Of a stretch of 64,000 nucleotides of DNA, positions 18,931-56,961 are shown in pieces (within the stretch, counting starts at the first letter, position 1; each line of letters opens with the position of its first letter). The notes beneath the pieces were generated by a model, which saw only the letters and a list, made by a program, of their open reading frames with translations, searched no databases and was not told the origin of the DNA. This DNA comes from Corallococcus coralloides (GTDB lineage Bacteria; Myxococcota; Myxococcia; Myxococcales; Myxococcaceae), in the NCBI RefSeq assembly GCF_044792175.1, contig NZ_CP172866.1. One strand, written 5' to 3'. Position numbers and translations under genes: made by a program.

Positions 18931-19680
18931 ATGGCACAGATCAAGCTTGGAGAACTGCTGATCAAGGCGAACGTCCTGCAGGAGAGCCAGCTCAAGGCGG
19001 CGCTCGCCGAGCAGGCCAAGTGGGGCGGGAAGCTGGGCGAGATCCTCGTCCGGATGAACCTCGTCTCCGAGGACATCCTCGTGCGCGCCCTGTCGAAACA
19101 GTTGGGCATGCCGGCGGTGAACCTGGACTCCGTGCAGATGGTGCCGCCGCACGTGAAGGCCAAGATTCCGGCGCAGACGGCGCGCGACTTCTCCGTGGTG
19201 CCGCTGCAACTGCGCGACGACGGCAAGACGCTGGTCGTCGCCATGTCGGATCCGCTCAACGTGCGCGTGCTGGACGAGCTGCGCGCCCTGTCCAAGTGCC
19301 GCATCGTGGCCAACGTGGCCGGGCGCACCTCCGTGGCGCGGGCGTTCGCGCGCCTCTACGAGGAGACGGCGGAGCTGGAGGACGCGGACACCAACTTCAA
19401 GGTGGTGGACGCCCAAGGCCGCACCGTCGTGAAGAACCTCAAGGACCTGGACCCGGCCGCCGCCGTCGCCATGTCCCCCAAGCCCGCCGCCGCTCCGCCG
19501 CCCCGCCAGGCCCCCCCGCCGGAGGCGCCGCGCGCGGCCTCGGGCAGCCCCGCGGAGCTGCTCAAGAGCGTGGAGGAGGTCCAGCGCAAGGAGGTCGCGG
19601 CGCTGAAGGCCATGGTGGAGCTGCTCATCGAGAAGGGCGTTTTCTCCCGCGAGGAATACCTCGCCAAGGTCAAGCGGTAG
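18931..19680 (+). CDS. stand-alone MshEN (GspE N-terminal, T2SSE_N) domain protein; candidate c-di-GMP receptor
   Basis: Two consecutive 24-residue MshEN motifs, IKLGELLIKANVLQESQLKAALAEQ and KLGEILVRMNLVSEDILVRALSKQ. No ATPase domain. Pro-rich linker and a conserved C-terminal helix. Confidence 0.75.
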   Translation: MAQIKLGELLIKANVLQESQLKAALAEQAKWGGKLGEILVRMNLVSEDILVRALSKQLGMPAVNLDSVQMVPPHVKAKIPAQTARDFSVVPLQLRDDGKTLVVAMSDPLNVRVLDELRALSKCRIVANVAGRTSVARAFARLYEETAELEDADTNFKVVDAQGRTVVKNLKDLDPAAAVAMSPKPAAAPPPRQAPPPEAPRAASGSPAELLKSVEEVQRKEVAALKAMVELLIEKGVFSREEYLAKVKR

Positions 19681-19689: not shown

Positions 19690-20693
19690 ATGCGCAAGAA
19701 GATTGGTGAACTCCTCGTCCAGGCCGGAGTGGTGACGGACGAGCAGGTGAAGCAGGCCCTCGCGTCCGGACGGCGCGGCCAGGGCCGCAAGCTGGGTGAG
19801 GTGCTGGTGTCCATGGGCCTGTGCACGGGCCGGGACATCGCGCGGGCGCTGGCGGCGCAGCACGAGCTGCCGTTCGTGGAGATCCCCGAGTACATCCCGC
19901 ATGCGGTGTCCTCGCTGGTGTCCATGGACTTCCAGACCGAGCACCGGGTGCTCCTCTTCGCGGCGGAGCAGGACGGCCGCAGCGAGAAGATCCACGTCGC
20001 GGTGGAGGACCCGGGCAACCTGATGCTGGTGGACGAGCTGCGCTTCCAGCTTCGCAAGCCGCTGAAGGTGTTCGTCGCCGCGCCGGATGACCTGGAGCAG
20101 GCGTTGTCGCGCGGCCGGGGCGAGCCCCTGGACATCGTGGAGGCTGAACCGATGGACATGGACGAGGACGATTCGCCGGACATCCTGACGTCTCCGCCGC
20201 CCCCGCCCGCCGCCGCGCGCGCGCCCACGCCGCCGCGTCCGCCCGCGCCGGCGCTGGACTGGGACCTGCCGCCGCCGCCGCCCAACGAGTCGGGCGTGGA
20301 CGGCGCGGAGGTGCTGGAGGACATCCTGGGCTCCACGCCCCGTCCCAAGGTCCCCAAGGCCCCGCGTCCGCCGCCCCCGCCCGCCGCGGCCCGTCCGCCG
20401 CCGCCTCCGCCCCCCGCGGAGCCGGAGGACCCGAGCAAGCCGCGCGTCCCGGTGGTGCTCTTCGGCGGCGCCGCGCAGGGCGTGAAGCCGTCCGTGGCGC
20501 TCACGCCCAAGCCGGACTTCTCCGAGGAGGACCTGGCGGTGCTGGACGACATCGACCGCATCTCGCGCGGCGAAGAGGCCAGCCTGGACACGGAGAAGGT
20601 GAAGCCCGCGCGCATGGTCGCGAGCCTCATCCGCCTGCTCATCCGCAAGGGGCTCATCCAGGAGGCGGAGTTCCTGGAGGAGCTGGCCCAGAA

Positions 20694-20697
<4 letters not shown>
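19690..20697 (+). CDS. stand-alone MshEN domain protein paralog with long Pro-rich linker
   Basis: Motifs [24 protein letters not shown] and [24 protein letters not shown]. The C-terminal helix is similar to the upstream paralog. Its stop overlaps the next start (GTGA). Confidence 0.75.
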
Positions 20698-21725: not shown

Positions 21726-22777
21726 GCGAGCCGCTGGTCCAGGTGCGCGACCTGAAGGTGCACTTCCCTGTGAAGGGCGGCCTGCTGGGCCGCACGCGCG
21801 GCACGGTGCGCGCGGTGGACGGCGTGTCCTTCGACGTCGCCCGGGGCGAGACGCTGGGGCTGGTGGGGGAGAGCGGCTGCGGCAAGAGCACCCTGGGGCG
21901 CGCGGTGCTGCGCCTCATCGACCCGACCTCCGGCTCCATCCGCGTGGCCGGTCGCGAGCTGACCGGCCTGTCGCAGCGCGAGCTGCGTCCGCTGCGCCGC
22001 CAGATGCAGCTCGTCTTCCAGGACCCGTACGCGTCGCTCAACCCGCGCATGACGGTGGGGGACATCCTCGCGGAGCCCTTCGCCATCCACGGCCTGGCGA
22101 AGGGCAGGGCGCGCGAGGACGAAGTGCTGGCGCTGCTCGACGCCATGGGGCTGCCCCGCGAGGCGCGCCAGCGCTACCCGCACGAGTTCTCCGGCGGCCA
22201 GCGTCAACGCATCGGCATTGCACGTGCCATCGCGTTGCGTCCGGACCTGGTGGTGGCGGACGAGCCCATCAGCGCGCTGGACGTCTCCATCCAGGCGCAG
22301 ATCGTCAACCTGCTGGTGGACCTGCAGCGCGAGCGCGGGCTCACCTACGTCTTCATCGCGCACGACCTGAAGATCGTCGAGTACGTGTCCACGCGCGTGG
22401 CGGTGATGTACCTGGGCCGCATCGTGGAGGTGGCGCCGTCGCGGGCGCTGTATGCCGGGCCTCGCCATCCGTACACGCAGGCCCTGCTGTCCGCGGTGCC
22501 CGTGCCGGATCCGGAGCGCCCCGGCACACGCCTGCTGCTGCCGGGAGAGCCGCCTTCGCCCCTGTCGCCGCCTTCCGGTTGCTCGTTCCACCCGCGCTGC
22601 CCGCATGCGATGGAGCGCTGCCGCCGCGAGTCACCGCCGCTGTATCCCCTGGGCGGTGGCCACGCCGCGGCGTGCTTCCTGGCCGAAGGGGATTCGCGCG
22701 ACGTGCAGGACGGGCCCGCCGTTTCCGCGTCCGGAGGAGGTGCCGGTGTTCTGGCTCAGCCATCATCACGCGGATGA
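21722..22777 (+). CDS. ABC transporter ATP-binding protein, OppF/DppF-like
   Basis: ATGA overlap with the upstream ATPase. Walker [18 protein letters not shown], and the C-terminal CSFHPRCP zinc-knuckle-like motif typical of OppF. Confidence 0.85.
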
Positions 22778-23153
22778 GTACAACCGCACGTACGTGCTCG
22801 CGGGCGTGCGCGTGTGCGCGCGGTGCCTGGGCACGTACCCGGTGCTCGCGGGCGTGTTCCTCGCGTTGTTCGCGTTGAAGGCGCCGCTGCGGTGGGAGTG
22901 GGACGTGCCCGGGGTGCTGGCCCTCACGCTGCCCGCGCTCGTGGACTGGGCGGTGGGACGCTTCCGGCCCGCTTCGGGTTCCAACGCGGTGCGCACGCTG
23001 ACGGGCGTCCTGTTGGGAGTGGGGCTCGGCCGCTCGCTGTACGTGCATGTGCAGCGCCCGCTGCCGGCGGTGCTGCTGGCGCAGGCACTTCTGGTGACAG
23101 GGGTGGCGGTCCCTGTCATTCTCGCCACTTACCGGCGGCCACGGCCGGAATAG
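22746..23153 (+). CDS. DUF2085-like small membrane protein
   Basis: GTG start with a GGAGGAGG RBS 6 nt upstream. Contains a CxRC motif followed by four hydrophobic helices. Overlaps the OppF-like end by 32 nt. Confidence 0.5.
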
Positions 23154-23184
23154 ACCTTTCGCGCACGGCTGTCCGTTACAGGCC

Positions 23185-23865
23185 GTGGGCGGTGAAGGGG
23201 ATGGCACCCGTGGCTTCATGGGCACTGGGGGAAGTTTGGCACCCGAAACCTCAGACGAGCAGTTGATGCTCGCCTTCCAGGCGGGAAACGCGCGTGCGTT
23301 CGAAGCGTTGGTGCGCAAGCACCGCGCGCCGGTGTTCAACTTCATCCTGCGCTTCGTGGGCCACCGGGCGCGGGCGGAGGACGTGCTGCAGGAGACCTGG
23401 CTCAAGGTGGTCCGCAGCGCCCGGGAATACGAGCCCAAGGCCCGGTTCACGACCTGGCTGTACACCATCGCGAGGAACCTCTGCGTGGACAGCACGCGCA
23501 AAGAGAGCTACCGCCAGGCGACGTCCCTGGAAGCCCCCTCGGCGGGTGCCGACGGCGACGAGGGACGTCCGCTGGGCGAGGGGCTGCCGGACGCCGGGGC
23601 CAGCCCGGAGCGCGGCGCGCACAACGCCCGCCTCCGGCCCCTGCTGGAGCGGGCCCTGTCGGCCCTGCCGGAGGAGCAGCGCGAGGTGTTCGTGCTGCGC
23701 GAGTACAGCGGCATCCCGTTCAAGGAGATCGCCGAGGTGACGGGCGTGTCCGAGAACACGGTGAAGAGCCGCATGCGCTACGCGCTGGAGGGCCTGCGCC
23801 GCCGCCTGGGTGAGCTGGGCGTGGACGGCGACCTGTCGGAGGATGGAAGGACGGTGGCGGGATGA
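23185..23865 (+). CDS. ECF (group IV) sigma-70 factor
   Basis: Region 2 (FEALVRKHRAPVFNFILRFV) and region 4 (FVLREYSGIPFKEIAEVTGVSENTVKSRMRYAL) signatures. The start is uncertain and may be the ATG 33 nt downstream. Confidence 0.85.
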   Translation: MGGEGDGTRGFMGTGGSLAPETSDEQLMLAFQAGNARAFEALVRKHRAPVFNFILRFVGHRARAEDVLQETWLKVVRSAREYEPKARFTTWLYTIARNLCVDSTRKESYRQATSLEAPSAGADGDEGRPLGEGLPDAGASPERGAHNARLRPLLERALSALPEEQREVFVLREYSGIPFKEIAEVTGVSENTVKSRMRYALEGLRRRLGELGVDGDLSEDGRTVAG

Positions 23866-25292
23866 ATGCCCAGAATGCCCACGCGCACGAGGACCGGCTC
23901 CTCGACTTCGCCTACGGCGAGCTCCCCGCGTCGGAGGCCCACGCGCTGGAGCAGCACGTCCAGGGCTGCGCGCGCTGCACGAAGGCGCTGGCGGACATCC
24001 GCGGCGTGCGCACCGCCATGGCGCAGTTGTCCTCGGAGCCCGCGCCGGACGCGGGCCTGGAGTCGCTGCTCGCGTACGCGCAGCAGTCCGCGCGCCGCGC
24101 CGCCGCCGGCCCCGAGCCGAAGCCCTCGCGCTGGCGCCGCTTCCTCTTGCCCGCGGTGGGCCTGGCCACGGTGGGCACCTTCGGCCTCCTGACGTTGACG
24201 GTGCGCGAGAACCTCGACCTGTCGCCGAACCTGTCACAGCGGGCCGCCCCCAGCGCGGCGATGGAGGCGGAGAAGGTCGCCCCCGTCGCCCCGGCCCCCG
24301 CGCCGTCGAGCGCCCCCCTCGAAGGGGACGCACCCGAGGGCGGCTCGGAGGCCCTGGCGGCCGCGCCGGGCGCGATGGAGCTCAACCGCAATCAGATGGA
24401 GACCAAGGCCCAGCGCAAGGGCACCGCCGCGGCCCGCCCGTCGGACTGGATGAACGCGGGCAGCGGGGGCGCGCTGCTGGAGCGCCGCGCGGACGCGGAG
24501 GCTCCTAAGAAGATGGTGGCCAAGGCCGTCCGGGACGCGGACGGCGAGTTCGCCGCGCTCGAGCCGCCTCCGGCCGCGCTGGAGGCGCTGGAGGCGCCGT
24601 CGAAGGAAGCGGAGGCCCATGACAGCTTCCTCGCGAAGGACGAGCCCGCGCGGGGGCGCGCCTCGGCCAAGGTCAGCGACAAGGCGCTGGCCACGAAGGG
24701 CGACTCCCTCCGGTTGGGTGAGGCGGCCTATGGCCGTGGGCTCGTCTCGGATGACGCCGAGGACACGTCCGCGAGCGCGCCTCCGCCGCCGCCTCCTCCA
24801 GTTGCCTCCGCGCCCGTGGTGCAGGCCGTGCCCATGGCCCCCGCGAGCGTGGGCTCCATCGGCGGTGCGTCGCCGCCGTCCACGCGCGCTCCCGCCGCGC
24901 CCAAGGAGGAGTCCGCCCGGGCCGAGGCCGCGAAGCCCGCTCCCATGGAGAAGTCCGCGTCCCAGGAGGCGATGACGGCGCGCGACCTGTCCGCCCAGGC
25001 CCAGGCCGCCGCGAACCAGGGTGACCGCGCCCGGGAGGCACGGCTGCTGCGCGCCGCGCTCGCGGCCGGAGCCAGCGGCAGCGAGCGGCTGGCCCTGCTC
25101 TCACGGCTCTGCGAGTCCGAGTCCGTCCAGGGCCGGACCCGGGAGGCCGCCGCCGTCTGCGGGCAGATCATCAAGGAGGCCCCCGGCTCCAGCGCGGCGC
25201 AGCTCGCCCAGCGCCGCCTGCGTCAGGCCTCGCCCCCCACGGCGCCGGCGTCCGCGCCGGCCAAGGCCGCTCCTTCCCAGCCCGCGCAGTAG
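23862..25292 (+). CDS. anti-sigma factor with zinc-binding ASD (HxxxCxxC), one TM helix and a long low-complexity periplasmic domain
   Basis: ATGA overlap with the sigma gene. N-terminus has HALEQHVQGCARCTKAL. A TM segment is LLPAVGLATVGTFGLLTLTV. Confidence 0.7.
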   Translation: MNAQNAHAHEDRLLDFAYGELPASEAHALEQHVQGCARCTKALADIRGVRTAMAQLSSEPAPDAGLESLLAYAQQSARRAAAGPEPKPSRWRRFLLPAVGLATVGTFGLLTLTVRENLDLSPNLSQRAAPSAAMEAEKVAPVAPAPAPSSAPLEGDAPEGGSEALAAAPGAMELNRNQMETKAQRKGTAAARPSDWMNAGSGGALLERRADAEAPKKMVAKAVRDADGEFAALEPPPAALEALEAPSKEAEAHDSFLAKDEPARGRASAKVSDKALATKGDSLRLGEAAYGRGLVSDDAEDTSASAPPPPPPPVASAPVVQAVPMAPASVGSIGGASPPSTRAPAAPKEESARAEAAKPAPMEKSASQEAMTARDLSAQAQAAANQGDRAREARLLRAALAAGASGSERLALLSRLCESESVQGRTREAAAVCGQIIKEAPGSSAAQLAQRRLRQASPPTAPASAPAKAAPSQPAQ

Positions 25293-25310
25293 GGAAGGGC
25301 GGCAGTCCAC

Positions 25311-25613
25311 ATGACCGATGCGGCCGGGGCCCGGGTCCTGGATAATGGGGACATGACGTCGGACGTGCACGCTCCCCCCGTGAACAGCCCCCGGAAGTCG
25401 CCGCCGCGCTCCCCGCGCCGGGCCCGCCGTGGCCAGGCCATGGTGGAGTACTCGATGATCAACTGGGTGTTGATCGTCGGGCTCGTCATCGGCGCCACGG
25501 TGAAGATCCGCTGGACGGACGACCGGCAGACCAACGTCATCGACCTGTTCCTCGAGGCGTATCAGATTTATTACGACTCGTTTTACTTCGTGCTGAACCT
25601 GCCGTTCCCCTGA
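25311..25613 (+). CDS. Flp/Fap-family (type IVc) pilin precursor
   Basis: Class III signal-peptide motif RRG-QAMVEYSMINWVLIVGLVIGATV (G-xxxx-EY) followed by a hydrophobic helix. Lies immediately upstream of cpaB/tadB/tadC. A GGGAAGGG RBS is upstream. The leader is unusually long, basic and Pro-rich. Confidence 0.65.
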   Translation: MTDAAGARVLDNGDMTSDVHAPPVNSPRKSPPRSPRRARRGQAMVEYSMINWVLIVGLVIGATVKIRWTDDRQTNVIDLFLEAYQIYYDSFYFVLNLPFP

Positions 25614-25845
25614 GGGACGCCAGGGCCGCGGATCAACCCGCTGCGTCGAGCCGTCCTCCCCCTGGGCGGGCAGGCTCCGTGAGCGCTGGAGGTCCCGGGA
25701 TTCCGCTTTGTCACGAGAGGTGGTTTTGACACCCGATGTGGGGCATGGCTAACATCTTGCTCCGTTCGCGCCCTGGCATCGCCCCCTCGTCCAAAGCAGT
25801 CCTGCCGCCACGACGGCGCCCCACCGTTCTGGAGGACCTTGAACC

Positions 25846-26664
25846 ATGTTGAAGGGTAAGACCCCGCTCGTCGTCGCACTGGTGCTCGGTTTGCTCGCGG
25901 GCATCGTGGCCTACTCGGCCATCAAGAAGAAGGAATCGGATGTGCGCCGCGGGTGGAACCTGGTGCCCGTGGTGGTGGCGGGCCAGGACATGCCCGAGGG
26001 TTCGGTCATCACGTACGAGATGATCTCCCAGCGCTCCGTGCCGGAGCAGTTCGTCACCTCGTCGGTGGTGAAGCCGGACTCCGCCAACTACATCGTGAAC
26101 CAGAAGGTGCTGGTGGCGCTGCAGGCCGGCGACCCCATCCTCTGGAGCCAGTTCGAGACGACGAAGGCCGCCGAGCGCCTGTCCACGAAGGTGCAGAAGA
26201 AGGCGCGCGCCATCACCATCGAGGCGAAGCAGACCACGTCCGTGGGCGGGTGGATCCGCCCCAACGATCACGTGGACATCATCGGCACGTTCCGCGATCC
26301 GCAGACGGACGAGAGCGTCGCGGTGACGCTGCTTCAGAACATCATCGTGGTCGCCACGGGCAAGATCACCGGCACCACGAACATCAACCTCATCCCGGAG
26401 AACCAGCGCGAGTACTCCAACGTCTCGCTGATGGTGCTGCCGGAAGAGGCGGAGATCCTGGTGCTGGCGGCGGAGCTGGGGCAGTTGACCCTGTCCCTGC
26501 GCAACGAGGACGACGTGGACCTCATCGAGGAGCGTGGCCGCGCGACCATCAGCACGCTGCTCTCCGGTGAGCGCACCCGCGTGCTGGAGCAGAAGCGCCG
26601 GGAGATCATCCAGATCATCAAGGGCAGTGGCGGCGGCGAGAAGGCCTCGGCCGGAGCTCCGTAG
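25846..26664 (+). CDS. cpaB: Flp pilus assembly protein CpaB (RcpC) family
   Basis: N-terminal TM anchor followed by SAF and CpaB periplasmic domains. Positioned between the pilin and tadB. Confidence 0.85.
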   Translation: MLKGKTPLVVALVLGLLAGIVAYSAIKKKESDVRRGWNLVPVVVAGQDMPEGSVITYEMISQRSVPEQFVTSSVVKPDSANYIVNQKVLVALQAGDPILWSQFETTKAAERLSTKVQKKARAITIEAKQTTSVGGWIRPNDHVDIIGTFRDPQTDESVAVTLLQNIIVVATGKITGTTNINLIPENQREYSNVSLMVLPEEAEILVLAAELGQLTLSLRNEDDVDLIEERGRATISTLLSGERTRVLEQKRREIIQIIKGSGGGEKASAGAP

Positions 26665-26742: not shown

Positions 26743-27588
26743 ATGCTCGCAGGTATCGTCCTCCTTCTCGTCACCGGCTCGGTGTTCTTCTTCAGCCTGG
26801 TGATCTTCAGCGTCCTGTCGAAGGCGTATGAGCAGTACCAGGAGCGCTACGTCGCCAAGTCGATGAACGACTTGAGCGACATGTTCCTCTTCATCGACGC
26901 GCGGCAGATGTTGATCCTCAACATCGCCTGCATGTGCCTTCTGGGCATCCTCAGCTACATCATCTTCAACCCCATCCTGGCGGTGCTCGCGACCATCTTC
27001 GGCTTCTTCCTGCCGATGCTGCTCGTGAAGCACTACCGCAAGCGCCGCATCAAGAAGTTCAACGTGCAGTTGGTGGACGCGCTGCAGGCCATGGCCAACG
27101 CGTTCAAGGCGGGCCTCACGTTCCCGCAGGCCATCGAGCACGTGGCGCGCGAGGCGCTGCCGCCCCTGTCCCAGGAGTTCGGCCTCTTCGTGAAGGAAGT
27201 GAAGCTGGGCGTGCCGCTGGAGGAGGCGCTCATCAACATGGGCCGCCGCGTGGGCAGCGACGACCTGGAGCTGGTGGTGGTGTCCACCAACATCGCGCGC
27301 CAGTTGGGCGGCAACATGGCGGAGATGTTCGAGACCATCTCCACGGTGATCCGCGAGCGCTTCCGTCTGGAAGGCAAGATCGACGCGCTGACGTCCCAGG
27401 GCAAGCTTCAAGGCTGGATCGTGGCGGCCATGCCGGCGGTGCTGGGCATGGTGCTCAACTACATGCGTCCGGACCTGATGGAGCCGATGATGAACCACAT
27501 CTTCGGCTACATCCTGGTGACCCTGATCGCCATCATGGAGATCATGGGCATCCTCATCATCCGGCGCATCGTCAACATCGACATCTGA
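26743..27588 (+). CDS. tadB: TadB-like (GspF-fold) inner-membrane platform protein
   Basis: 281 aa with N-terminal TM helices, a cytoplasmic T2SSF domain and C-terminal TM helices, as is typical of TadB/CpaG. Confidence 0.85.
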   Translation: MLAGIVLLLVTGSVFFFSLVIFSVLSKAYEQYQERYVAKSMNDLSDMFLFIDARQMLILNIACMCLLGILSYIIFNPILAVLATIFGFFLPMLLVKHYRKRRIKKFNVQLVDALQAMANAFKAGLTFPQAIEHVAREALPPLSQEFGLFVKEVKLGVPLEEALINMGRRVGSDDLELVVVSTNIARQLGGNMAEMFETISTVIRERFRLEGKIDALTSQGKLQGWIVAAMPAVLGMVLNYMRPDLMEPMMNHIFGYILVTLIAIMEIMGILIIRRIVNIDI

Positions 27589-27601: not shown

Positions 27602-28492
27602 GTGCAGGAAGTCCTGACATTTCTGCTGATGGGCGGCTCGGCACTGCTGACCGCGGGCGCGGTGGCGTTCCTGGGCATCGGCCTGTACACCAACCTCCTG
27701 GAGCGCTTCCTCACGGAAGTCCGCGACGAGTCCGCGGGCGGCATGAAGGGCGCGGGCTCCGTCGCCATCCGCAAGCTGGGCGCGATGAACCGGCGCTTCA
27801 TGTGGCCGGGCTACGAGTCCAAGACGCGCCGCAAGCTGATCAAGGCGGGCGAGCCGTCCCAGTACAAGCCCGAGGACATCATGGCGCTGCAGGAGGTGAG
27901 CGCCTTCCTGGGCCTGCTGGTGGGCCTGTTCGTCGCCAACGGCATCGGGGCGAACCTGGCGTGGTCGCTGCTGGTGATGCTGCTGGGCCTGTTCTATCCG
28001 CTCATCTGGTTGAACGACCAGGTGAAGCGCCGTCACCTGGCCATCAGCCGCGCGCTTCCGTACAACCTGGACCTGCTGACTCTGTCGGTGGAAGCGGGCA
28101 TGGACTTCACGGGCGCGCTGGCGAAGGTGGTGGAGAAGGGCCGCCAGGGGCCGCTGCGCGAGGAGCTGCAGTTGGTGCTCAAGCAGCTCAAGATGGGCAA
28201 GACGCGTGAAGAGGCGCTCAAGGGCATGATCGTGCGCGTGGACCTGCCGTCGCTGACGACGTTCGTCACGGCGCTGATCCAGGCGGACAAGATGGGCACG
28301 AGCCTGGGCAAGGTGCTGCGCATCCAGTCCACGCAGATGCGCATCGACCGCACGCAGCGCGCGGAGAAGCTGGCGGGCGAGGCACCGGTGAAGATGCTCT
28401 TCCCGCTCATCGCGTGCATCTTCCCGACGGTGTTCATGGTGCTCTTCGGGCCCATCGTGTTCCAGTTCATGTTCGGCAACGTCGGGGGCTAG
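27602..28492 (+). CDS. tadC: TadC-like (GspF-fold) inner-membrane platform protein
   Basis: 296 aa. Second T2SSF-domain paralog, typical of TadC/CpaH. Confidence 0.85.
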   Translation: MQEVLTFLLMGGSALLTAGAVAFLGIGLYTNLLERFLTEVRDESAGGMKGAGSVAIRKLGAMNRRFMWPGYESKTRRKLIKAGEPSQYKPEDIMALQEVSAFLGLLVGLFVANGIGANLAWSLLVMLLGLFYPLIWLNDQVKRRHLAISRALPYNLDLLTLSVEAGMDFTGALAKVVEKGRQGPLREELQLVLKQLKMGKTREEALKGMIVRVDLPSLTTFVTALIQADKMGTSLGKVLRIQSTQMRIDRTQRAEKLAGEAPVKMLFPLIACIFPTVFMVLFGPIVFQFMFGNVGG

Positions 28493-28565: not shown

Positions 28566-31457
28566 GTGAAGATCGGCCGGACCTCGGAGAACGACCTGGT
28601 CCTGCATGACCACGGTGTCTCCCGGCGTCATGCCCGCATCACGGCGAGGGATGGGCGTTACTTCGCCGAGGACGTTGGCAGCGCGAACGGCACGCAGTTG
28701 AACGGCCAGCCGCTGGGCGGCCAGAAGCAACTGCGCGACGGCGACCGCATCACCGTGGGGCCGGTGGAGTTCACCTTCGTGTGGGTGGCGCCGGAGGATG
28801 ACGACGACGTCACCCGGCCCATCCGGCGGATGCTCGCGCCGCCGCACGCGAAGGTGTCTCCGCAGGGCGTGGAGCAGGCCTCGCTCGCGGAGATCGAAGC
28901 GGCGCCCACGAGCTACCAGCCGTCGATGCCGGCCATGGCCCGGCCCGCGTCCCCGCCGCGCCCGGGGATGGCCGTGCCCGCCGCGAAGGGTGGGGCGATG
29001 CCGATGCCGGCCGCCACGCCGAAGCGGCCCTCCGCTCCGGATCTACCGGCGGTTGGTGCCTCCGCGCCGGGGGCGGCTGCTCCGGCCCGGACGCCTCCGG
29101 GGCCTCCCGTGCTTGGGGCCTCCGCGCCGGGCCGGGCTGCACCGGGAACTCCCGTGCTGGGCACGCCCACGCCGGGGGCGGCGGCTTCGCCCAAGCCTGG
29201 TGTGCAGGGAGCCTCTGTTCCGGCGACTCCGCCCCGGCCTCCCTCGGGTCCGCCTGCGCTGGGCGCCTCTGCGTCCTCTGCTTCGGGCAAGGTTCCCGCC
29301 GCGCCTTCCGTGGTGGGGAGCCTGGGGCAGGGCGCGACCGCGCCGGCCAGGACTCCCGCGGGCCCTCCGGTGTTGGGTCCCGCGGCTCCCGGCGAGGGTT
29401 CCCCGGCCAGGGCTCCTGCGGCTCCCCCGGTGCTGTCGGCCGGGAACAAGGCCTCGGGAGCTTCCGCCGCCGTCCGTGCCTCCGGGCCGGGACCGTCCTT
29501 GGCGGCCCGGGGCGCAGCGGCTTCGTCACCCGGCCTGCCGTTGATGTCTCCGCCGGGGCTGATGGTTCCGCCTCCTCCCGCACGGCCTCTCGCCGTGCCT
29601 CCTCCCGTGGAGCTGGCCCCCGTGGCGCCGGACGAGCCCGAGGAGCGCACGCTGATGGCGATCTCCACGGTGGACTCGCCCGTGCCCGCCGCCACGCCGC
29701 CTCCCGTGCTGTCCCTCCCGGACATGGACGAGCCCGAGGAGCGCACGCTGATGGCGATCTCCACGGTGGACTCGCGCGTGCCCGCCGCCGCGCCGCCTCC
29801 CGTGCTGCCTCTCCCGGAGCTGGACGAGCCCAACGAGAGCACGCTGATGGCGATTCCCACGGCGGACCTGGCCGTGCCCGCCGCCACACCGCCCCCGGCG
29901 CTCTCCTTCCCGGAGCTGGACGAGCCCGAGGAGCGCACGCTGATGGCGATTCCGGCGACCCCGGAAGCGCCACCGGTTCCCGTCGCGCCGCCGCCGCAGG
30001 AGGCCCCGCCCGCGCTGCCCCCGCCGGCGATGGAGGAGCCCGAGGAGCGGACCGTCCTCGACCTCCGGCCCATCACGCCGGTCAAGCCGCTCGTGGCCCC
30101 TCCGGTGCGCATCGTGAGCGCGCCCGCCGCCGCGCTCGACTCCAGCGAGCCCTCGACCTTCGTCGGCCAGGACGATGACCTCTCCGCGGCCCCCGAGGAG
30201 ACCCGGGCCTCCGGGACCTTCTCGGGCCAGGTCGCGCCCGGACCCGCCGCACCGGCCGCGGCGCCTCCGCCGGCCTGGAGCCCTCCCGTCCCGCCGCCTT
30301 CCGAGGAGCCGGTGACGTTCGTCGGCCACGACCGCGCCCCGCCTGCCCCGGCCCTGGACCCCGGGCTGCTGACGGGCGAAATCCCACTGCTGGCCCATGT
30401 GCCCGCTCCGGACGCGGAGGGTGAAGCCACCCTGCCCGTGCCGGCCAACCTGGATGAGTCCGCCACCCAGCCCGCGCCAAGGGGCCCGGTGACGGTCGTC
30501 GCGAAGGTCGAGCCCTCGTCCGCCGCCGACAAGGCCCGCCAGCGGCGCCAGTTGGGCAAGACGCTCAAGGGCCGGTTCCTCCTCTTCTGGCAGCGCCAGT
30601 CGCTGCCCAGGCGCATCGGCTTCGCGTCGCTGGCGGGCGTGGCCGTGCTGGGCGTGCTGACGCTGCTCGTGGCGCTCGCGGCCCCCTCGGCCATCCGGCT
30701 CCCGGGCCGCGAACCCTTCACGCTGGGCATGGAGCCGGTGCCGGACTCCTTCGGCCTGGGCGAAGGGGTGCGCTGGGTCCACGCCGACGACAAGCTCTTC
30801 GACTTCCGCTTCGTGTCCCCCACGCGCGCCGTGGCGGTGCTGCACTACCAGGCCAGCAACATCGCCCGGGACGAGGTCAACCTGTCCCTCAACGGCGTGT
30901 CCCTGGGCTGGGTGCCCCCGGATACCGCCCAGACGGCCGAGCGTGAGCTGGAGCAGGTCCTCCCGCCCAGCCTCCTGCGGCGCAACGCCAACAACCAGCT
31001 CCTCTTCGACAACGCCCTCAACCCGCCCGGCCGCGACCCCTGGCGCATCTGGAACCTGCGGCTGGAGATCATCCCGGTGCCGGAACTGCCGCCGGATCAG
31101 CTCATCACCTCCGCCCGGGAGGCCGCCAAGGCAGGGGCCCGCTTCTACGAACTCAAGGACGTGGGCGCGGAGAACCTGTTCAAGGCGTGGCGGGAGTACC
31201 GCGCCGCGTGGATCACCCTGGAAGCGCTGGACGACAAGCCGGAGCTCTACGAGGACGTCCGGGAGCGGATCGCCCAGATTTCAACGGAGCTGGACCACCG
31301 CTGCAGCCAACTGATGATGCAGTTCCAGCGGGCGGTTCAGTTCCGCAGCCGACGGGATGCGGTCGCCACCCTGGAAGACGTACGGAGACGCTTCCCTACG
31401 GCCGAGCATCGCTGCCACAATCTCGCGCTGGAAAAAGCCTATGAGCACGAGCTTTAG
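28566..31457 (+). CDS. bitopic FHA-domain protein (cytoplasmic FHA, Pro-rich repeat linker, one TM helix, periplasmic C-terminal domain)
   Basis: FHA signature GRTSENDLVLHDHGVSRRHARI...GSANGTQLNG. TM helix at RRIGFASLAGVAVLGVLTLLVALAA. The FHA beta-1 region (PILLTITQGLQVGRELAFEQAE) is encoded in-frame upstream of the first canonical start, so the true start probably lies near 28497. Confidence 0.8.
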   Translation: MKIGRTSENDLVLHDHGVSRRHARITARDGRYFAEDVGSANGTQLNGQPLGGQKQLRDGDRITVGPVEFTFVWVAPEDDDDVTRPIRRMLAPPHAKVSPQGVEQASLAEIEAAPTSYQPSMPAMARPASPPRPGMAVPAAKGGAMPMPAATPKRPSAPDLPAVGASAPGAAAPARTPPGPPVLGASAPGRAAPGTPVLGTPTPGAAASPKPGVQGASVPATPPRPPSGPPALGASASSASGKVPAAPSVVGSLGQGATAPARTPAGPPVLGPAAPGEGSPARAPAAPPVLSAGNKASGASAAVRASGPGPSLAARGAAASSPGLPLMSPPGLMVPPPPARPLAVPPPVELAPVAPDEPEERTLMAISTVDSPVPAATPPPVLSLPDMDEPEERTLMAISTVDSRVPAAAPPPVLPLPELDEPNESTLMAIPTADLAVPAATPPPALSFPELDEPEERTLMAIPATPEAPPVPVAPPPQEAPPALPPPAMEEPEERTVLDLRPITPVKPLVAPPVRIVSAPAAALDSSEPSTFVGQDDDLSAAPEETRASGTFSGQVAPGPAAPAAAPPPAWSPPVPPPSEEPVTFVGHDRAPPAPALDPGLLTGEIPLLAHVPAPDAEGEATLPVPANLDESATQPAPRGPVTVVAKVEPSSAADKARQRRQLGKTLKGRFLLFWQRQSLPRRIGFASLAGVAVLGVLTLLVALAAPSAIRLPGREPFTLGMEPVPDSFGLGEGVRWVHADDKLFDFRFVSPTRAVAVLHYQASNIARDEVNLSLNGVSLGWVPPDTAQTAERELEQVLPPSLLRRNANNQLLFDNALNPPGRDPWRIWNLRLEIIPVPELPPDQLITSAREAAKAGARFYELKDVGAENLFKAWREYRAAWITLEALDDKPELYEDVRERIAQISTELDHRCSQLMMQFQRAVQFRSRRDAVATLEDVRRRFPTAEHRCHNLALEKAYEHEL
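29631..30060 (+). repeat. about 4.3 copies of a 96-bp in-frame tandem repeat encoding LPxxDEPEERTLMAISTVDSxVPAAxPPPVLx
   Basis: The unit gacgagcccgaggagcgcacgctgatggcgat... recurs at about 29631, 29727, 29823 and 29919, with a decayed copy near 30030. Confidence 0.8.
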
Positions 31458-31484
31458 GGCCCGTGCCCCCCTCAGCAGGACGCG

Positions 31485-33233
31485 GTGACCTCCATGTCGA
31501 ACGCACCACCCCCCGCCCGCCGACGGCCTACATCTGGCACGCCCTCCTCCGGGACCGGTTCGCGCGCGCCGGTCCGCCGGTCGTCCGCCGGTGCCGCCGC
31601 GGCCCGCCCCGCGAAGCTCGTCGTCATCGCCGGCCCCATGGAGGGTGAGGAGTTCGCGCTCTCCGAGCTCGAGTACACGGTCGGCCGCTCCACCGACAAC
31701 CCCATCTGCATCCAGGACACGTCCGTCTCCCGCAAGCACGTGACGCTGCGCAAGGAGTCCGCCGGCTGGATGGTCAGTGACATGGGCTCCGGCAACGGCA
31801 CCATCGTCAACGGCGAGCCCATCTCCGAGGAGACGCTCCTCGCCAACGGCGACGTCATCACGCTGGGCGACTCGGAGCTGCGCTACGAGGACACCGCCAA
31901 CAGCACCGCGAAGGTGCAGGCCCCCACCGGCCCCCGGCCCCGTCCATCCTCGGCGGCGGGCCGCGGTTCCACGGCCGTGCCCACGCGCCCCGCCCGCGAG
32001 GGCCGCGCGCGCCCGCAGACGTCGCGGGCCGCCGCCGCCGCGGAGCTCTCGCCGGAGGTGCAGCGCAAGCGCATGCGGATGAAGCTCGCGGGCGCCGCCG
32101 TGCTGGTGGTGCTCTTCGCGGGCCTGGGCGTCGCGCGCTCGCGCATGCGGCAACAGGCGGAGGAGCAGGGCCGCATCGAGGCGGAGCAGCGCAGCTACCG
32201 CGAGCAGTTGGGCGGCCTCTTCCAGGAGGCGAAGAACCTGGTGCGCGAGGGCCAGTGGCAGCAGGCCAAGGCGAAGCTGGAGGAGCTCCACGCGCAGGCG
32301 CCGGACTACCCCGGCGTGGCGGACTACCTGAAGGCCGCGGAGCGGGAGATCCCCAACCAGAACCACCTGAGCACGGCCCAGGCGGCGCTGGACAAGGGCC
32401 AGTTGGCCAGCGCGAAGGCGTCCATCGAGAAGGTGACCAGCGACACCCAGCTCTACGAGCAGTTGAAGACGGCGCGCAAGAACCTGACGGACGCCGCCGA
32501 CACGCGCACGAAGGAGGCCAAGCGGCTGCTGGACACCCGCCAGTTGGAGAACGTGCAGCAGGCCAAGGCCATCACCGACGACGTGCTCGCGACCTTCCCC
32601 GAGCACCGCGACGGCAAGCTGGTCAACGACGACGCCGTGCGCGTCATCGCGGACCTGACGCGTCCGGACCCCGTGCGCGTGGCCGCGGCGCCCAAGCCGT
32701 GGGAGCCCGCCGTGGACCGCTTCCGCGACGGTGACATCACCGGCGCGGTGGCCATCCTCAACGCGTGCGCGGCCAAGACGTCCCAGTGCAAGCAGTTGAT
32801 GGCGCAGGTGACGGAGTTCGGCAACCTCTACAAGAAGCTGGAGGACCTGGACGCCAAGGGCCTCACCCGCCTGCTCGCGCTGGACAAGGACATCACCGAC
32901 GGGCGCGCCAGCAAGATGGCGCGCAACGCGGGCACCCGCGCGGGCAACATCTATTACAAGAGCGCCGCGGGCGCGAAGGCCGCCGGCCAGTGGTCGCGCG
33001 CCATGGAGTTCGCCCGCCGCGCGCTCCAGGCGGACCCCAGCCACGCGGGCGCCGCCAACATCGTCAACGACCTCAAGGGCAAGGCGAAGGACCTGTACAT
33101 GCAGGCCTACTCCATCAAGGACTCCAGCCCGGAGGACGCGCTGCCCAAGTTCCGCGACGTCGTCGCGATGACGCCGCCCGACGACGAGCTGCACGGCAAG
33201 GCCCAGGGCTGGGTCGAGAAGCTGTCGCGATGA
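31485..33233 (+). CDS. second bitopic FHA-domain protein with TM helix and TPR/coiled-coil-like periplasmic domain
   Basis: Complete FHA domain (LVVIAGPMEGEEFALSELEYTVGRSTDNPICIQDTSVSRKHVTL...GSGNGTIVNG). TM at MKLAGAAVLVVLFAGLGVA. Stop overlaps the xseA start (ATGA). Confidence 0.8.
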   Translation: MTSMSNAPPPARRRPTSGTPSSGTGSRAPVRRSSAGAAAARPAKLVVIAGPMEGEEFALSELEYTVGRSTDNPICIQDTSVSRKHVTLRKESAGWMVSDMGSGNGTIVNGEPISEETLLANGDVITLGDSELRYEDTANSTAKVQAPTGPRPRPSSAAGRGSTAVPTRPAREGRARPQTSRAAAAAELSPEVQRKRMRMKLAGAAVLVVLFAGLGVARSRMRQQAEEQGRIEAEQRSYREQLGGLFQEAKNLVREGQWQQAKAKLEELHAQAPDYPGVADYLKAAEREIPNQNHLSTAQAALDKGQLASAKASIEKVTSDTQLYEQLKTARKNLTDAADTRTKEAKRLLDTRQLENVQQAKAITDDVLATFPEHRDGKLVNDDAVRVIADLTRPDPVRVAAAPKPWEPAVDRFRDGDITGAVAILNACAAKTSQCKQLMAQVTEFGNLYKKLEDLDAKGLTRLLALDKDITDGRASKMARNAGTRAGNIYYKSAAGAKAAGQWSRAMEFARRALQADPSHAGAANIVNDLKGKAKDLYMQAYSIKDSSPEDALPKFRDVVAMTPPDDELHGKAQGWVEKLSR

Positions 33234-40806: not shown

Positions 40807-41247
40807 GGTTTCGCACTCTAGCGCGCTCCCTCGGGAAGCGGGCGGGGCCACCTCCCCCGCGCCTTCCCCCGGCTCCCTGATCGCGAGATCCCCTGAAAAC
40901 CCCCAGCAGGCGCCTGCACGTCCGCTAGGCCTCCGGCCGGACGAAGAGGGTGGTATTGGAAGAAAGTGACAGCCTGGCTGTTTTCGTGGGATTCCCGCCC
41001 GGCAAGGGCTGGGCGGGCGGTTTCCGGTCACCGGACCGTCACGCGCGTGCGGGATTCCGGAGGAAGAACGCCGGTCCGGGGTATACGTCGCGCGCCTTTT
41101 CCCACCCCTCTCTCATGAGGAGAGCCCCGTTCATCCGCTGGCCCGCGGACGGGTTAGACGGCATGATCCGGAATCGACCATGACTCCTTTCGCACCCAAC
41201 GGGTTTCCGCGACGTCGTTCCCTGTCTGGGCGGGGCGGAGGCGCGCC

Positions 41248-43761
41248 GTGAGGATCGAGATGTTGTCGTCGGAGCAGCGGGGGCGGGTGCTCGTGCTCGC
41301 GGCGAAGGCCGCGGGTGACGCGTTGGTGGAGCGGCTCACGGCGAGTGGCTACCAGTGCGCCTCCACGGAGCGGGAGACCGGGCTGGCGGAGATGGTGGAT
41401 CAGCTCCAGCCGGAGGTGGTGCTCCTGGCCGTGACGGCCAAGCGGGCGGCGGAGCTGCTGGAGACGGTGCGCAAGACGGACAAGCTCCAGCGCCTGCCGG
41501 TGCTGGTGGATCAGGGCCGCGCGCGTTCGGCGGAGGCCTTCAAGCGCCTGGCGGTGGATGACTTCGTGCGCGGCGCGGATGAGCTGGTGCCCCGGCTGGA
41601 GTCCGCCCTGCGCGCCTGGAGGCTCAAGGAGCGCGAGGAGCGCATCCGGATGCGCATGGGGATGCTGCTCGAAATCACCCAGGCGGCCACCAGCTCGCTG
41701 GAGCTGGAGGAGATCCTCCGCATCGCGGTGGAGAAGGTCGGCCAGGTGACGGGCACGGACCGCTGCTCCGTGGTGCTGGTGGAGGGCAGCCACGCGCGCA
41801 CGGCCACGGTCGTCGCGACGCAGGAGGACCCCAGCCTCGTCCAACTGGACATCGAGGTGGCGCGCTACCCGGAGCTGCGCCGCGCGCTGGAGACGCGCCA
41901 GCCCGTGCTGATTGAAGAGGCGCAGCGCGACCCGCTGATGGCGGAGGTGCGCACGTCGCTGTTGCCGCAGGGCGTGAAGTCCATCCTGGTGCAGCCGCTC
42001 ATCTGCCAGGACGACCTGCTGGGCGCGCTCTTCCTGCGCGTGTCCAAGGGCGAGGCGTCCATCGGGCGCGACGAGCAGGAGTTCGCGGAGGCGGTGGCGG
42101 GCGTGCTCGCCAACTCCATCCGCAACGCGCGCCTGCACACGGCGGTGAAGAAGAAGCGCGAGGACCTGGAGCTGGCGTACGTGGAGCGCTACCGCGAGCT
42201 CAACGACGCGAACCGCCGCCTCAAGGAGCTCAACCGCCTCAAGGACGAGATCATCGCGGTGTGCAGCCACGACCTGCGCGCGCCGCTCCAGGTGCTCCTG
42301 GGGCACGGCCGGCTGCTGCTGGAAGGGCCGCTGGAGGCGCAGCAGAAGCAGTCCGCGGAGGCGATGATCCGCCAGGGCCGGAAGATCCTCACCCTGGTCG
42401 AGTCCCTGCTGGAGAAGGGCAAGGGCGAGGCGGCGCGCCTGTCCATCGAGCCCCGCGTGCTGGACGTGGCGCAGTTGTGCCGCGACGCCGTGGCGGAGCT
42501 GGAGATCCTGGCGGCGGAGAAGGCCGTGTCGCTGCGCTCCGAGTGCCCCGACAGCCTCATGCTGATCGGCGACGAGGTGAAGCTGCACGAGGTGCTGCAG
42601 AACCTCATCAGCAACGCCATCCAGCACGCCAGCGACCCGGGCGTGGTGGTGGTGCGCACGCAGCGGCTGTCCCGGCCGGACGGCGACGCGGTGCGCGTGA
42701 TGGTGAGCGACAACGGCGTGGGCATCCCGCCGGACGAGCTGCACCTCGTCTTCGACCGCTACCGCCACGGGCCCAAGGGCACGGGGCTGGGGCTGGCCAT
42801 CTGCAAGGAGTTCGTGGAGCTGCACGGCGGTGAGATCTGGGCGGAGAGCCCGGCGGACGGCGGCTGCACCTTCGTCTTCACGCTGCCCCTGGCGCAGGAG
42901 GCCGCGCGCAACCCCCGGCCGCAGCCCGCGCCCGGCGCCGCCCCCGAGCAGCCGCGCGTGCTGGTGGTGGAGGACGAGCCGGAGATCGCCGCGGTGCTGT
43001 CGGAGGTGCTGCGCTCGAAGTACCGCGTGGAGGTGGCGCGCGACGGCGCGGAGGGCCTGGCGAAGGCACGCGCGTCCCGTCCGGACCTGGTGGTGATGGA
43101 CGTGTTCCTGCCCAAGCTGGACGGCCTGGACGCGGCCATGGCGCTCAAGTCCTCGTCGGACACGGCGCACATCCCGGTCATCCTCCTGTCCGCCCACCAG
43201 GGCGTGGCCGACAAGGTCCGCGCGCTCAACCTGGGCGCGGTGGACTACATGGCCAAGCCCTTCAACGCGGTGGAGCTGCTCAACCGCACCGAGCGCGCGC
43301 TCAAGCTGCGCCAGGGTGAGAAGGAGCAGGACACCAAGACGAACTCGCTCCAGCGCCGCACCGGCAGCGACCCCGTCACGGGGCTGCACGACCGCCGGGG
43401 CCTGCTCCTGCGCCTGGAGCAGGAGGTGGCCCGCAGCCGCCGCTACCACCGCGCCCTCACGCTGGCGGTGCTCCGTCCGGATCGCGAGCTGGAGGTGATG
43501 CCGTCCAACATGGGGGACGTGATGCGCAAGCGCGTGCGCCACCCGGACGCCATCGCCCACCTGGGGCAGGGCGTCTTCGCGGTGGTGCTGCCCGAGTGCA
43601 ACGCGGACGCGGCGCGCACGGTCATCAACCGCCTGATGCCGGACGTGGAGCAGGTGACCTCCATCGAGTACCGGGCCGCCATGGCGGACGTCAGCCAGGA
43701 CAGCGATCCGGTGGAGAAGCTGCTGGAGAAGCTGGGGGCGCCCCCTCCCGAGGTCCACTAG
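41248..43761 (+). CDS. hybrid sensor histidine kinase: pseudo-receiver, GAF, HisKA, HATPase, REC, degenerate GGDEF
   Basis: The N-terminal REC-like domain lacks the acceptor Asp (EVVLLAV). H-box is CSHDLRAPL and the G-box is GTGLGLAICKEFVELHGGEI. A canonical REC follows (LVVMDVFLPKLDG). The C-terminal GGDEF-like domain has GQGVF in place of GGDEF. Confidence 0.8.
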   Translation: MRIEMLSSEQRGRVLVLAAKAAGDALVERLTASGYQCASTERETGLAEMVDQLQPEVVLLAVTAKRAAELLETVRKTDKLQRLPVLVDQGRARSAEAFKRLAVDDFVRGADELVPRLESALRAWRLKEREERIRMRMGMLLEITQAATSSLELEEILRIAVEKVGQVTGTDRCSVVLVEGSHARTATVVATQEDPSLVQLDIEVARYPELRRALETRQPVLIEEAQRDPLMAEVRTSLLPQGVKSILVQPLICQDDLLGALFLRVSKGEASIGRDEQEFAEAVAGVLANSIRNARLHTAVKKKREDLELAYVERYRELNDANRRLKELNRLKDEIIAVCSHDLRAPLQVLLGHGRLLLEGPLEAQQKQSAEAMIRQGRKILTLVESLLEKGKGEAARLSIEPRVLDVAQLCRDAVAELEILAAEKAVSLRSECPDSLMLIGDEVKLHEVLQNLISNAIQHASDPGVVVVRTQRLSRPDGDAVRVMVSDNGVGIPPDELHLVFDRYRHGPKGTGLGLAICKEFVELHGGEIWAESPADGGCTFVFTLPLAQEAARNPRPQPAPGAAPEQPRVLVVEDEPEIAAVLSEVLRSKYRVEVARDGAEGLAKARASRPDLVVMDVFLPKLDGLDAAMALKSSSDTAHIPVILLSAHQGVADKVRALNLGAVDYMAKPFNAVELLNRTERALKLRQGEKEQDTKTNSLQRRTGSDPVTGLHDRRGLLLRLEQEVARSRRYHRALTLAVLRPDRELEVMPSNMGDVMRKRVRHPDAIAHLGQGVFAVVLPECNADAARTVINRLMPDVEQVTSIEYRAAMADVSQDSDPVEKLLEKLGAPPPEVH

Positions 43762-46502: not shown

Positions 46503-46555
46503 CATAATCAGGTCGCCCCGCTCCCGACGGAGCAGGCGCTGGCGAGGATCACCTC

Positions 46556-56886: not shown

Positions 56887-56961
56887 GCGGGAATAGCTCA
56901 GCGGTAGAGCATCGCCTTGCCAAGGCGAGGGTCGAGGGTTCAAATCCCTTTTCCCGCTCCA
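56887..56961 (+). tRNA. tRNA-Gly (anticodon GCC)
   Basis: GCGGGAATAGCTCAGCGGTAGAGCATCGCCTTGCCAAGGCGAGGGTCGAGGGTTCAAATCCCTTTTCCCGCTCCA. The acceptor stem GCGGGAA pairs with TTCCCGC, the anticodon loop is TTGCCAA, and CCA is encoded. Confidence 0.9.

Follow-up and report, generated by a model that had tools for sequence, protein, structure and literature searches.

A predicted autoregulated ECF sigma factor/anti-sigma factor module adjoins kil cluster 2 in Corallococcus coralloides and is probably not its dedicated direct activator

Results

Genes at the locus

We analysed a 64,000-nt stretch of the Corallococcus coralloides genome (assembly GCF_044792175.1, contig NZ_CP172866.1), hereafter called the window, whose positions serve as coordinates throughout and whose G+C content is ~72%. 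It carries a pair of genes for an extracytoplasmic function (ECF) sigma factor and a zinc-finger anti-sigma factor next to the genes of a Tad-like system. An earlier note on this DNA had placed the pair directly 5′ of a Flp-type gene and of cpaB- and tadBC-type genes on the same strand and had proposed that the sigma factor drives them. Pfam domains and the order of the open reading frames (ORFs) bear out the placement, and the downstream genes, which encode one CpaB/RcpC and two T2SSF proteins, are indeed Tad-like and orthologous to kil cluster 2 of Myxococcus xanthus (Table 1). The nearest proteins are from Corallococcus: the sigma factor is 98% identical to that of Corallococcus sp. 4LFB and the anti-sigma factor 99% identical to that of Corallococcus sp. 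AS-1-12. Orthologous or related loci used for comparison are designated by L-numbers, among them those of Myxococcus sp. SDU36 (L081), M. stipitatus (L082), a strain labelled Corallococcus terminator (L083), C. coralloides DSM 2259 (L163), Corallococcus sp. Z5C101001 (L164), Archangium (L002 and L072) and a metagenome (L109).

The group IV assignment made in the earlier note, together with the overlapping anti-sigma gene, agrees with both domains and sequence. Pfam models match 23185-23865 with Sigma70_r2 (6.6e-19) and Sigma70_r4_2 (4.6e-17) and without region 1 or region 3, and the two ORFs share an ATGA overlap at 23862-23865. The protein matches NCBIfam NF009166 (PRK12513) over nearly its full length (268 bits, cutoff 206) and TIGR02937 with 114 bits, its nearest solved structures are RpoE-, SigE-, SigL- and SigW-like ECF sigma factors, and it is 80-98% identical among homologues from Myxococcaceae and Archangiaceae. 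NF009166 itself carries no functional name; full-length membership is shared with it, and the kil-adjacent members form only a Cystobacterineae-type subset of the family. The pairing of the sigma gene with a zf-HC2-type anti-sigma gene was extracted from 49 loci. The gene had been proposed to begin at GTG 23185. We moved the start to ATG 23218, which is more likely because 215 aa is also the annotated length of the C. coralloides DSM 2259 protein and of the Corallococcus protein with 98% identity; transcription would be expected to start at ~23184, as judged from the predicted ECF -10 element described below. Two sigma factor entries from the same M. stipitatus genome, one of 223 aa (kil-adjacent) and one of 210 aa that matches no called gene on record, raised the idea of a second paralog but are probably one gene with different annotated starts.

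The second gene encodes a predicted class I zinc-binding anti-sigma factor (ZAS), for which zinc binding and sequestration of the sigma factor are expected from its sequence. The zf-HC2 domain at residues 10-39 scores 24.9 bits (Pfam cutoff 22.2), and within HVQGCARC (HxxxCxxC, residues 32-39) the residues H32, C36 and C39 are nearly invariant. The anti-sigma domain (residues 1-90) is followed by a hydrophobic transmembrane segment (RWRRFLLPAVGLATVGTFGLLTLTV, residues ~91-114), a disordered Ala/Pro-rich linker (~115-370) and a TPR-like domain (373-456), and the C-terminal 361 residues consist of 25% Ala, 11% Pro, 10% Ser and 8% Glu. Motif, membrane segment and composition are therefore as the earlier note had described them, with the correction that the periplasmic part of ~380 aa is not of uniformly low complexity: an AlphaFold model based on a 30-sequence alignment has pLDDT values <50 at residues ~108-358 and of 94-97 at residues 373-456, where a five-helix domain is formed (nt 24978-25229) whose Cys417 and Cys433 are invariant. 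In Foldseek searches, this domain is most similar to small TPR domains, including the peptide-binding domain of collagen prolyl-4-hydroxylase and the TPR domain of YbgF, with target-normalised TM scores of 0.61-0.77 and an rmsd of ~2 Å over ~89 residues, at E-values of only ~0.02. Sequence matches are weak and comprise a membrane-protein chain of 3hug and the "Antisigma factor DdvA" chain of 8rlz (E = 0.09); the likeness to the M. xanthus DdvS/DdvA pair is that of the zinc-finger N-terminus and is confined to the anti-sigma domain. An exact-sequence look-up found neither the window anti-sigma factor nor its 99% relative on record.

Gene order and domains downstream of the pair match M. xanthus kil cluster 2, which belongs to the Kil (Tad-like) system of contact-dependent prey killing (Seef 2021, supplementary file 18). 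The order zinc-finger gene, (Tip4), kilK, kilB, kilG, kilH, FHA gene, FHA-TPR gene is kept, and tblastn identities to the Myxococcus orthologs are 80-94% for the window proteins; for kilB, kilG and kilH, identities to orthologs are 86-94%. In contrast to M. xanthus, the Corallococcus locus lacks kilM4, kilN4 and kilL4 as well as equivalents of MXAN_4656/4657 and MXAN_4653/4654; none of the Tip4 genes kilL4, kilM4 and kilN4 has a tblastn match in the window at E <= 1e-3, and the same Tip4-less layout is found in C. coralloides DSM 2259 and Corallococcus sp. Z5C101001. The small ORF upstream of kilB is 80% identical over 60 aa to the 75-aa gene at the KilK position of Myxococcus sp. SDU36, bears the Flp-type processing motif G/QAMVEYS and has no Pfam or NCBIfam match. 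KilK is now described as an adapter that joins the KilP pilus to its tips and not as the major pilin (PMC12075869). The designation as pilin gene in the earlier note is thus right with respect to the Flp-type motif and has to be narrowed to a tip-adapter minor pilin. Its start is probably ATG 25353 (86 aa), because this codon is aligned with the start codon of a conserved upstream element.

The published list of kil cluster 2 genes comprises MXAN_4648-4661 (Seef et al. 2021; Herrou et al. 2025). The sigma gene is not included there, and MXAN_4661 is not named an anti-sigma factor but listed as of unknown function, "putative zinc-finger" (Seef 2021, supplementary file 18). Judged by position and domain from the published table and from Myxococcus loci other than DK1622, MXAN_4661 appears to be the ortholog of the window anti-sigma gene, and the adjoining gene appears to encode its sigma factor. 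Our searches of the literature found no study that names the pair as a regulator, in line with the remark in the earlier note that no regulatory link is established; on ECF control of Flp/Tad pili, they returned two P. aeruginosa papers, one of them about SigX. A requirement for contact-dependent prey killing has been shown for core kil genes of M. xanthus only (Kil papers).

Table 1 Predicted genes and regulatory features of the sigma/anti-sigma and kil region in the window
Feature	Position	Strand	Basis or remark
DUF2085 membrane-protein gene	22746-23153	+	Pfam DUF2085; 3′ end holds predicted regulatory DNA of the sigma gene
Conserved DNA block GTGACAGGGGTGGCGGTCCCTGTCATTCTCGCCACTTAC	23094-23133	+	Invariant core in eight loci
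Predicted ECF-type autoregulatory promoter	23151-23178	+	Family motif and position weight matrix
ECF (group IV) sigma factor, 215 aa from the more likely start	23218-23865	+	Pfam Sigma70_r2 and Sigma70_r4_2, NCBIfam NF009166
Predicted single-pass zinc-finger (ZAS-type) anti-sigma factor, 476 aa	23862-25292	+	Pfam zf-HC2
Promoter-like element GACCGATGCG-N18-GATAAT-GGGGAC-ATG	25313-25355	+	Conserved in alignments
kilK ortholog, Flp-type tip-adapter minor pilin, 86 aa from the probable start	25353-25613	+	Identity to Myxococcus sp. SDU36 gene
Sigma-70-type kilB promoter TTGACA-N18-TAACAT, predicted	25726-25755	+	Consensus match, conserved
kilB (CpaB/RcpC)	25846-26664	+	Pfam RcpC/SAF; Tad inner-membrane platform gene
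kilG	26743-27588	+	Pfam T2SSF; Tad inner-membrane platform gene
kilH	27602-28492	+	Pfam T2SSF; Tad inner-membrane platform gene
FHA-domain gene at the MXAN_4649 position	28566-31457	+	
FHA-domain gene with TPR at the MXAN_4648 position	31485-33233	+	

A predicted ECF-type promoter precedes the sigma gene and is not found at the kil genes

ECF sigma factors usually transcribe their own genes, and we therefore compared the upstream regions of the sigma genes of all loci for a common motif. Phylogenetic footprinting yielded the bipartite motif (T)AGAYC, 15-16 nt, (Y)CG(Y)(S)CGTY. In the form (T)AGAYC-N15/16-CGTY, it occurs in 41 of 84 upstream regions in the sense direction compared to 10 of 84 on the reverse strand, with a G-to-C spacing of 20 nt in 32 of 40 motif sites. 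The site in the window consists of the -35 element TAGACC (23151-23156), of which TAG is the stop codon of the DUF2085 gene, and the -10 element CCGTTA (23173-23178), giving TAGACC-N17-CGTT up to position 23177. When scored with a position weight matrix (PWM), this site, which belonged to the training set, reaches 19.8 bits and is the best of the 128,000 positions in the window. In 14 of 15 metagenomic loci outside the training set, the site preceding the sigma gene has 10.8-28.4 bits; in the remaining one, L113, it is cut by the edge of the scanned stretch. We predict from this motif that the sigma gene has an autoregulatory ECF-type promoter.

The module resembles RpoE-, SigE- and SigW-like ECF sigma factors with class I ZAS partners in its sigma-2 and sigma-4 domains, the coupled HxxxCxxC single-pass anti-sigma gene and an autoregulatory promoter with a CGT core in the -10 element and a spacer of the usual length. 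It differs from these pairs in its -35 element, which is AGAYC instead of the common form GGAAC/AAC, and in the periplasmic part of the anti-sigma factor, with its disordered linker of ~260 residues and its TPR-like domain with two invariant cysteines.

For the kil genes, the earlier note had suggested looking for an AAC-N16-17-CGT-like promoter in 25293-25310 and 25614-25845. With the family-specific model, whose -35 proved to be AGAYC and not AAC, neither stretch contains a credible site: the best PWM match in 25293-25352 and 25614-25845 has 2.4 bits (position 25631), a score reached by 107 positions of the window, compared to 19.8 bits at the sigma gene's own site, and the proposal that the sigma factor drives the Tad-like genes directly therefore failed this promoter test. 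The element at 25313-25355 contains no PWM match of at least 6 bits. Upstream of kilM4 or kilB in seven close loci (L081, L082, L083, L001, L003, L002 and L072), no match reaches 7 bits, and the only strong site in these loci (18.5-24.5 bits) is that of the sigma gene itself. Across ~4 Mb of locus sequence scanned on both strands, 53 of the 103 matches of at least 14 bits are the upstream sites of sigma genes; none of the 45 best-scoring other matches lies directly upstream of kilB, kilK or kilM4, and those near kil genes lie inside coding sequence.

Individual candidates in the window and its relatives were discarded. A loose regular-expression match in the kilK-kilB spacer (25631-25655, GATCAACCCGCTGCGTCGAGCCGTC) scores 2.4 bits, is one of 44 such loose matches in the window and is not conserved. 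The two positions in the window that score next after the sigma gene's own site, 46526-46550 (minus strand, 14.0 bits) and 63500-63523 (plus strand, 13.6 bits), lie inside or antisense to coding sequence according to the ORF table and were judged non-functional. A TTGACC box upstream of kilM4/kilK, considered as a degenerate ECF -35, is without a CGT at the required spacing in six of seven loci.

Members of the sigma family outside the close relatives offer further sites. In Anaeromyxobacter and Kofleriaceae, a second strong ECF-type site (20-25 bits) is located just upstream of the sigma gene on the opposite (minus) strand (L008 9928-9951, L016 3163-3186, L014 9899-9922 and L064 9844-9867), which suggests a divergently transcribed target in these lineages; the Kofleriaceae site overlaps a conserved upstream gene at its end, and we read this gene as fpg-like. 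Strong ECF-family matches also occur downstream of kilB-like genes at contig ends (L156 1640-1663, 24.2 bits; L134 8196-8221, 21.4 bits), and the sigma operon may lie on the other side of the kil genes in some lineages.

A conserved block precedes the predicted ECF promoter

Just upstream of the ECF -35, the block with the invariant core (23094-23133) is unique in the window. It holds the inverted repeat TGACAGGG/CCCTGTCA (TGACAG-N11-CTGTCA), and a sigma-70-like reading, GTGACA-N17-CATTCT, is possible as well. The final residues of the DUF2085 protein are encoded within the block in most genomes, with rare codons ending in A or T. In Archangium minus (L072 9875-9925), it is kept as a non-coding duplicate ~55 nt past the diverged end and stop codon of the DUF2085 gene, and this non-coding survival indicates constraint on the DNA and not on the protein. 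From these sequence features, two roles are possible for the block, that of an operator and that of an additional, housekeeping promoter for the sigma operon.

Predicted promoter elements at the kil genes

Approximately 105-135 nt upstream of kilB, eight close loci share the invariant sequence TTTGACAC ... TAACATC. The TTGACA-N18-TAACAT contained in it is the sole match to the sigma-70-type consensus within positions 22700-26000 of the window, where shuffled sequences give an expectation of 0.0; transcription would be expected to start ~7 nt past position 25755. Of 47 kilB loci, 34 have a TTGAC-N16-20-TAnnnT promoter; these extend to KilB identities as low as 71% and include loci in which the anti-sigma gene directly precedes kilB. 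At kilM4, the upstream element GTCCAnTTGACCGATGC ... GATAATGG-N3-CATG is conserved in L081, L082, L083, L001, L003, L088 and L093, and the same element stands between the anti-sigma stop codon and kilK in the window. Its GATAAT -10 lies 6 nt from ATG 25353, a distance that would fit a leaderless kilK transcript. Taken together, the Kil platform genes look as if they were constitutively promoted by the housekeeping sigma factor, and such promoters fit published evidence that contact acts on Kil assembly, within minutes, rather than on transcription.

The neighbourhood is conserved and the intervening DNA is not

Eight close loci (from Myxococcus, L083, Hyalangium, Archangium and a Myxococcaceae metagenome-assembled genome) share the order MshEN-MshEN-ABC-ABC-DUF2085-sigma-anti-sigma-kil cluster 2. 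The DUF2085 gene, whose window product is 81% identical to that of a 135-aa Myxococcus gene, precedes the sigma gene in nearly all Cystobacterineae-type loci. In L081 and L082, the order is DUF2085, sigma, zf-HC2 anti-sigma, TadE (kilM4), Tad (kilN4), TadE (kilL4), two unknown genes, the 75-aa gene (kilK), two more unknown genes and CpaB. The pair had been described as immediately upstream of the pilin gene, which applies to Corallococcus-type loci and not to Myxococcus, where 6-8 kb of Tip4 genes lie between the two.

The DNA between the anti-sigma gene and kilB takes several forms: (i) the full Tip4 block on the same strand in Myxococcus and Hyalangium, (ii) an inverted Tip4 block in Archangium and the metagenomic L109, (iii) kilK only in the window, L163, L164, L113, L125 and L157, (iv) nothing in L004, L100, L106, L119 and L139 and (v) an unrelated 805-aa gene plus Tip4 in L091. 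In the Archangium-type loci (L002 12040-18746, L072 12012-18574 and L109 3042-9700), the entire block from kilM4 to the MXAN_4654 equivalent is inverted, which makes it convergent with the anti-sigma gene and kilM4 divergent from kilB over ~300 bp of shared intergenic DNA. The inserted gene of L091 (685-3102) stands between the anti-sigma gene and kilM4; from its sequence and without a domain scan, we presume it to be GH31-like.

The kilM4 promoter and start element is joined straight to kilK in three Corallococcus loci (window 25293-25845, L163 7450-8003 and L164 10441-11010). This arrangement suggests that Corallococcus lost the region from early kilM4 through the gene before kilK, which would have fused the kilM4 promoter and start to kilK, and it is compatible with an in-frame deletion common to the three loci. 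L083 retains Tip4, and the kilK-only layout is found also in more distant lineages without the kilM4/kilK element.

Among ~25 kilB-kilG loci with enough upstream sequence, the sigma/anti-sigma pair is present upstream in ~22, the exceptions being L134, L141 and L149. In these linked loci, sigma identities range from 51 to 87% and those of KilB from 45 to 94%, and the intervening DNA is highly variable. Sigma factors with 40-59% identity are encoded also in ~70 loci of some Burkholderiales and of other Myxococcota, including Kofleriaceae, Polyangiaceae, Nannocystis, Sandaracinaceae and Anaeromyxobacter, where kil genes are absent within 10 kb, and the anti-sigma factors extracted beside these genes have the same zinc-finger start and the same TPR-like end. 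Since the sigma family is found phylum-wide without kil genes, the sigma/anti-sigma module is old and widespread, and its kil neighbourhood is a feature of Cystobacterineae-type lineages.

Neighbouring genes

On the 5′ side, the sigma gene is preceded by the DUF2085 gene, two oligopeptide-type ABC ATPases and two stand-alone MshEN-domain proteins. The latter (18931-19680 and 19690-20697) keep synteny with the sigma gene and kil cluster 2 even in the distant L004, and they may be unrecognised Kil-associated factors. On the 3′ side, Pfam detects FHA, Yop-YscD_cpl and TPR domains in the two FHA genes (28566-33233), the first of which contains 4-5 tandem repeats of ~31 aa (DEPEERTLMAISTVDS.VPAA.PPPVL) inside a long Pro/Ala-rich region. 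A hybrid histidine kinase (41167-43761; GAF, HisKA, HATPase and receiver domains and a partial C-terminal GGDEF match) is encoded ~8 kb past the kil genes. An Rfam scan of the full window returned two tRNAs and nothing else; these genes (56887-56958 and 56992-57063) are 34 nt apart, score 73.1 bits each and are probably a tandem duplicate.

Discussion

With moderate confidence, we interpret the pair as an autoregulated ECF/ZAS module that is a conserved neighbour of kil cluster 2 and probably not its dedicated direct activator, since the kil genes have conserved non-ECF promoters of their own. Several observations weigh against this interpretation. In the deep-branching L004, whose sigma factor is 51-55% identical, two PWM matches (8.9 and 12.2 bits) are located 40-75 nt upstream of kilB in a region without a good sigma-70 -35, and a rough estimate puts the chance of such a match at ~0.04. 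A prediction based on a motif could miss a divergent or activator-assisted ECF site. The persistent linkage of the pair to kilB despite turnover of the intervening DNA may reflect selection for proximity. In the window, the search for terminators gave no match from the anti-sigma gene to kilK or to kilB, and RNA folding of three intergenic or regulatory stretches, including those after the anti-sigma gene and kilK, gave z-scores within noise. In the DiscOperon preprint, the M. xanthus cluster MXAN_RS22530-RS22635 is placed in one large predicted operon, a range that by our reading includes the sigma gene.

These points bear on two transcriptional alternatives. If the pair were a switch dedicated to kil cluster 2, the anti-sigma factor would be inactivated when prey is contacted or the envelope perturbed, and the freed sigma factor would directly drive the promoters of kilK/Tip4 and of kilBGH. 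The linkage, retained in many lineages and mostly with the same orientation, speaks for such a switch, as do the reported induction of kil genes by starvation and prey, the presence of a "putative zinc-finger" gene in the published cluster, the weak ECF-like matches in L004 and the expectation of the Kil authors that a sensory cascade, still unidentified, is encoded in the kil clusters. We nevertheless regard it as distinctly improbable, because ECF-family promoters are missing upstream of kilK, kilM4 and kilB in the window and in the seven close loci, where the sigma gene's own site is clear throughout, because kilB has a near-consensus and widely conserved sigma-70-type promoter, because the sigma family is spread through the phylum without kil genes and because the published contact regulation acts on assembly. 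An influence by read-through only, in which the ECF transcript runs into kilK in Corallococcus or into kilM4 and beyond in Myxococcus and envelope stress modestly raises the expression of Kil tip and platform genes above their constitutive promoters, is to us unlikely as the whole explanation. Read-through could occur in Corallococcus, which is without the ~6-8 kb Tip4 block and has 60 nt on the same strand from the anti-sigma stop to kilK, with no terminator-like hairpin or unusual RNA structure in between, and the operon in the preprint extends over kil cluster 2 genes. That operon is itself a prediction, however. Terminators are poorly predicted in high-GC genomes, and the missing terminator match is therefore weak evidence. 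In Archangium, the inverted Tip4 block converges on the anti-sigma gene and makes read-through impossible, so that read-through cannot serve as a conserved mechanism; together with the foreign gene in L091 and the conserved kilBGH promoter, the inversion argues that co-transcription is not conserved.

A third alternative assigns the anti-sigma factor to the Kil apparatus as an accessory or sensor, whose tether and TPR-like domain would make contact with a component of Kil or of the outer membrane and whose sigma factor would report Kil activity to genes elsewhere. The conserved periplasmic domain with its invariant cysteines, the long disordered tether and the persistent position next to kilB are compatible with such a role, but the same architecture in lineages without nearby kil genes makes it highly improbable. 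It is also conceivable, if doubtful, that the pair forms the transcriptional arm of prey- or envelope-contact sensing, in which the periplasmic TPR-like domain would sense either Kil pilus activity or prey-derived damage to the envelope, and the released sigma factor would raise the expression of kil tip and platform genes by read-through or from promoters not seen by the motif model.

For the autoregulated module that we favour, gene identities, promoter motifs with their conservation and synteny lead us to propose the following scheme of signal, sigma release, promoter usage and read-through. By analogy with other ECF/ZAS pairs, the zinc-finger domain of the single-pass anti-sigma factor would keep the sigma factor at the inner membrane, and the periplasmic part of the anti-sigma factor would act as a disordered Ala/Pro-rich tether of ~260 residues that ends in a small, TPR-like domain for protein binding, in which two cysteines are invariant. 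A cue from the periplasm or the envelope that acts on this domain would release the sigma factor, which would then transcribe its own operon from TAGACC-N17-CGTT (23151-23177), overlapping the DUF2085 stop codon. Independently, kilBGH would be transcribed from their own sigma-70-type promoter and kilK or the Tip4 genes from the GATAAT leaderless-type element. In Corallococcus, activation of the sigma factor may in addition cause read-through into kilK and possibly into kilBGH, a secondary contribution that is conceivable in Myxococcus too.

For predators of the Myxococcus type, the sensing of prey and the control of the Kil machinery are still open questions in the field. The Kil cluster 2 system is known; what is new is an uncharacterised pair belonging to a well-known kind of signalling module. 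A gene published as of unknown function, MXAN_4661, is apparently the ortholog of the anti-sigma gene with its sigma partner adjoining. The promoter analysis at the same time lowers the expectation that this sigma factor controls the Kil platform genes. For a phylum-wide ECF family without a functional name in NCBIfam, (T)AGAYC-N15/16-CGTY provides a defined promoter motif that can be used to map its regulon in complete genomes.

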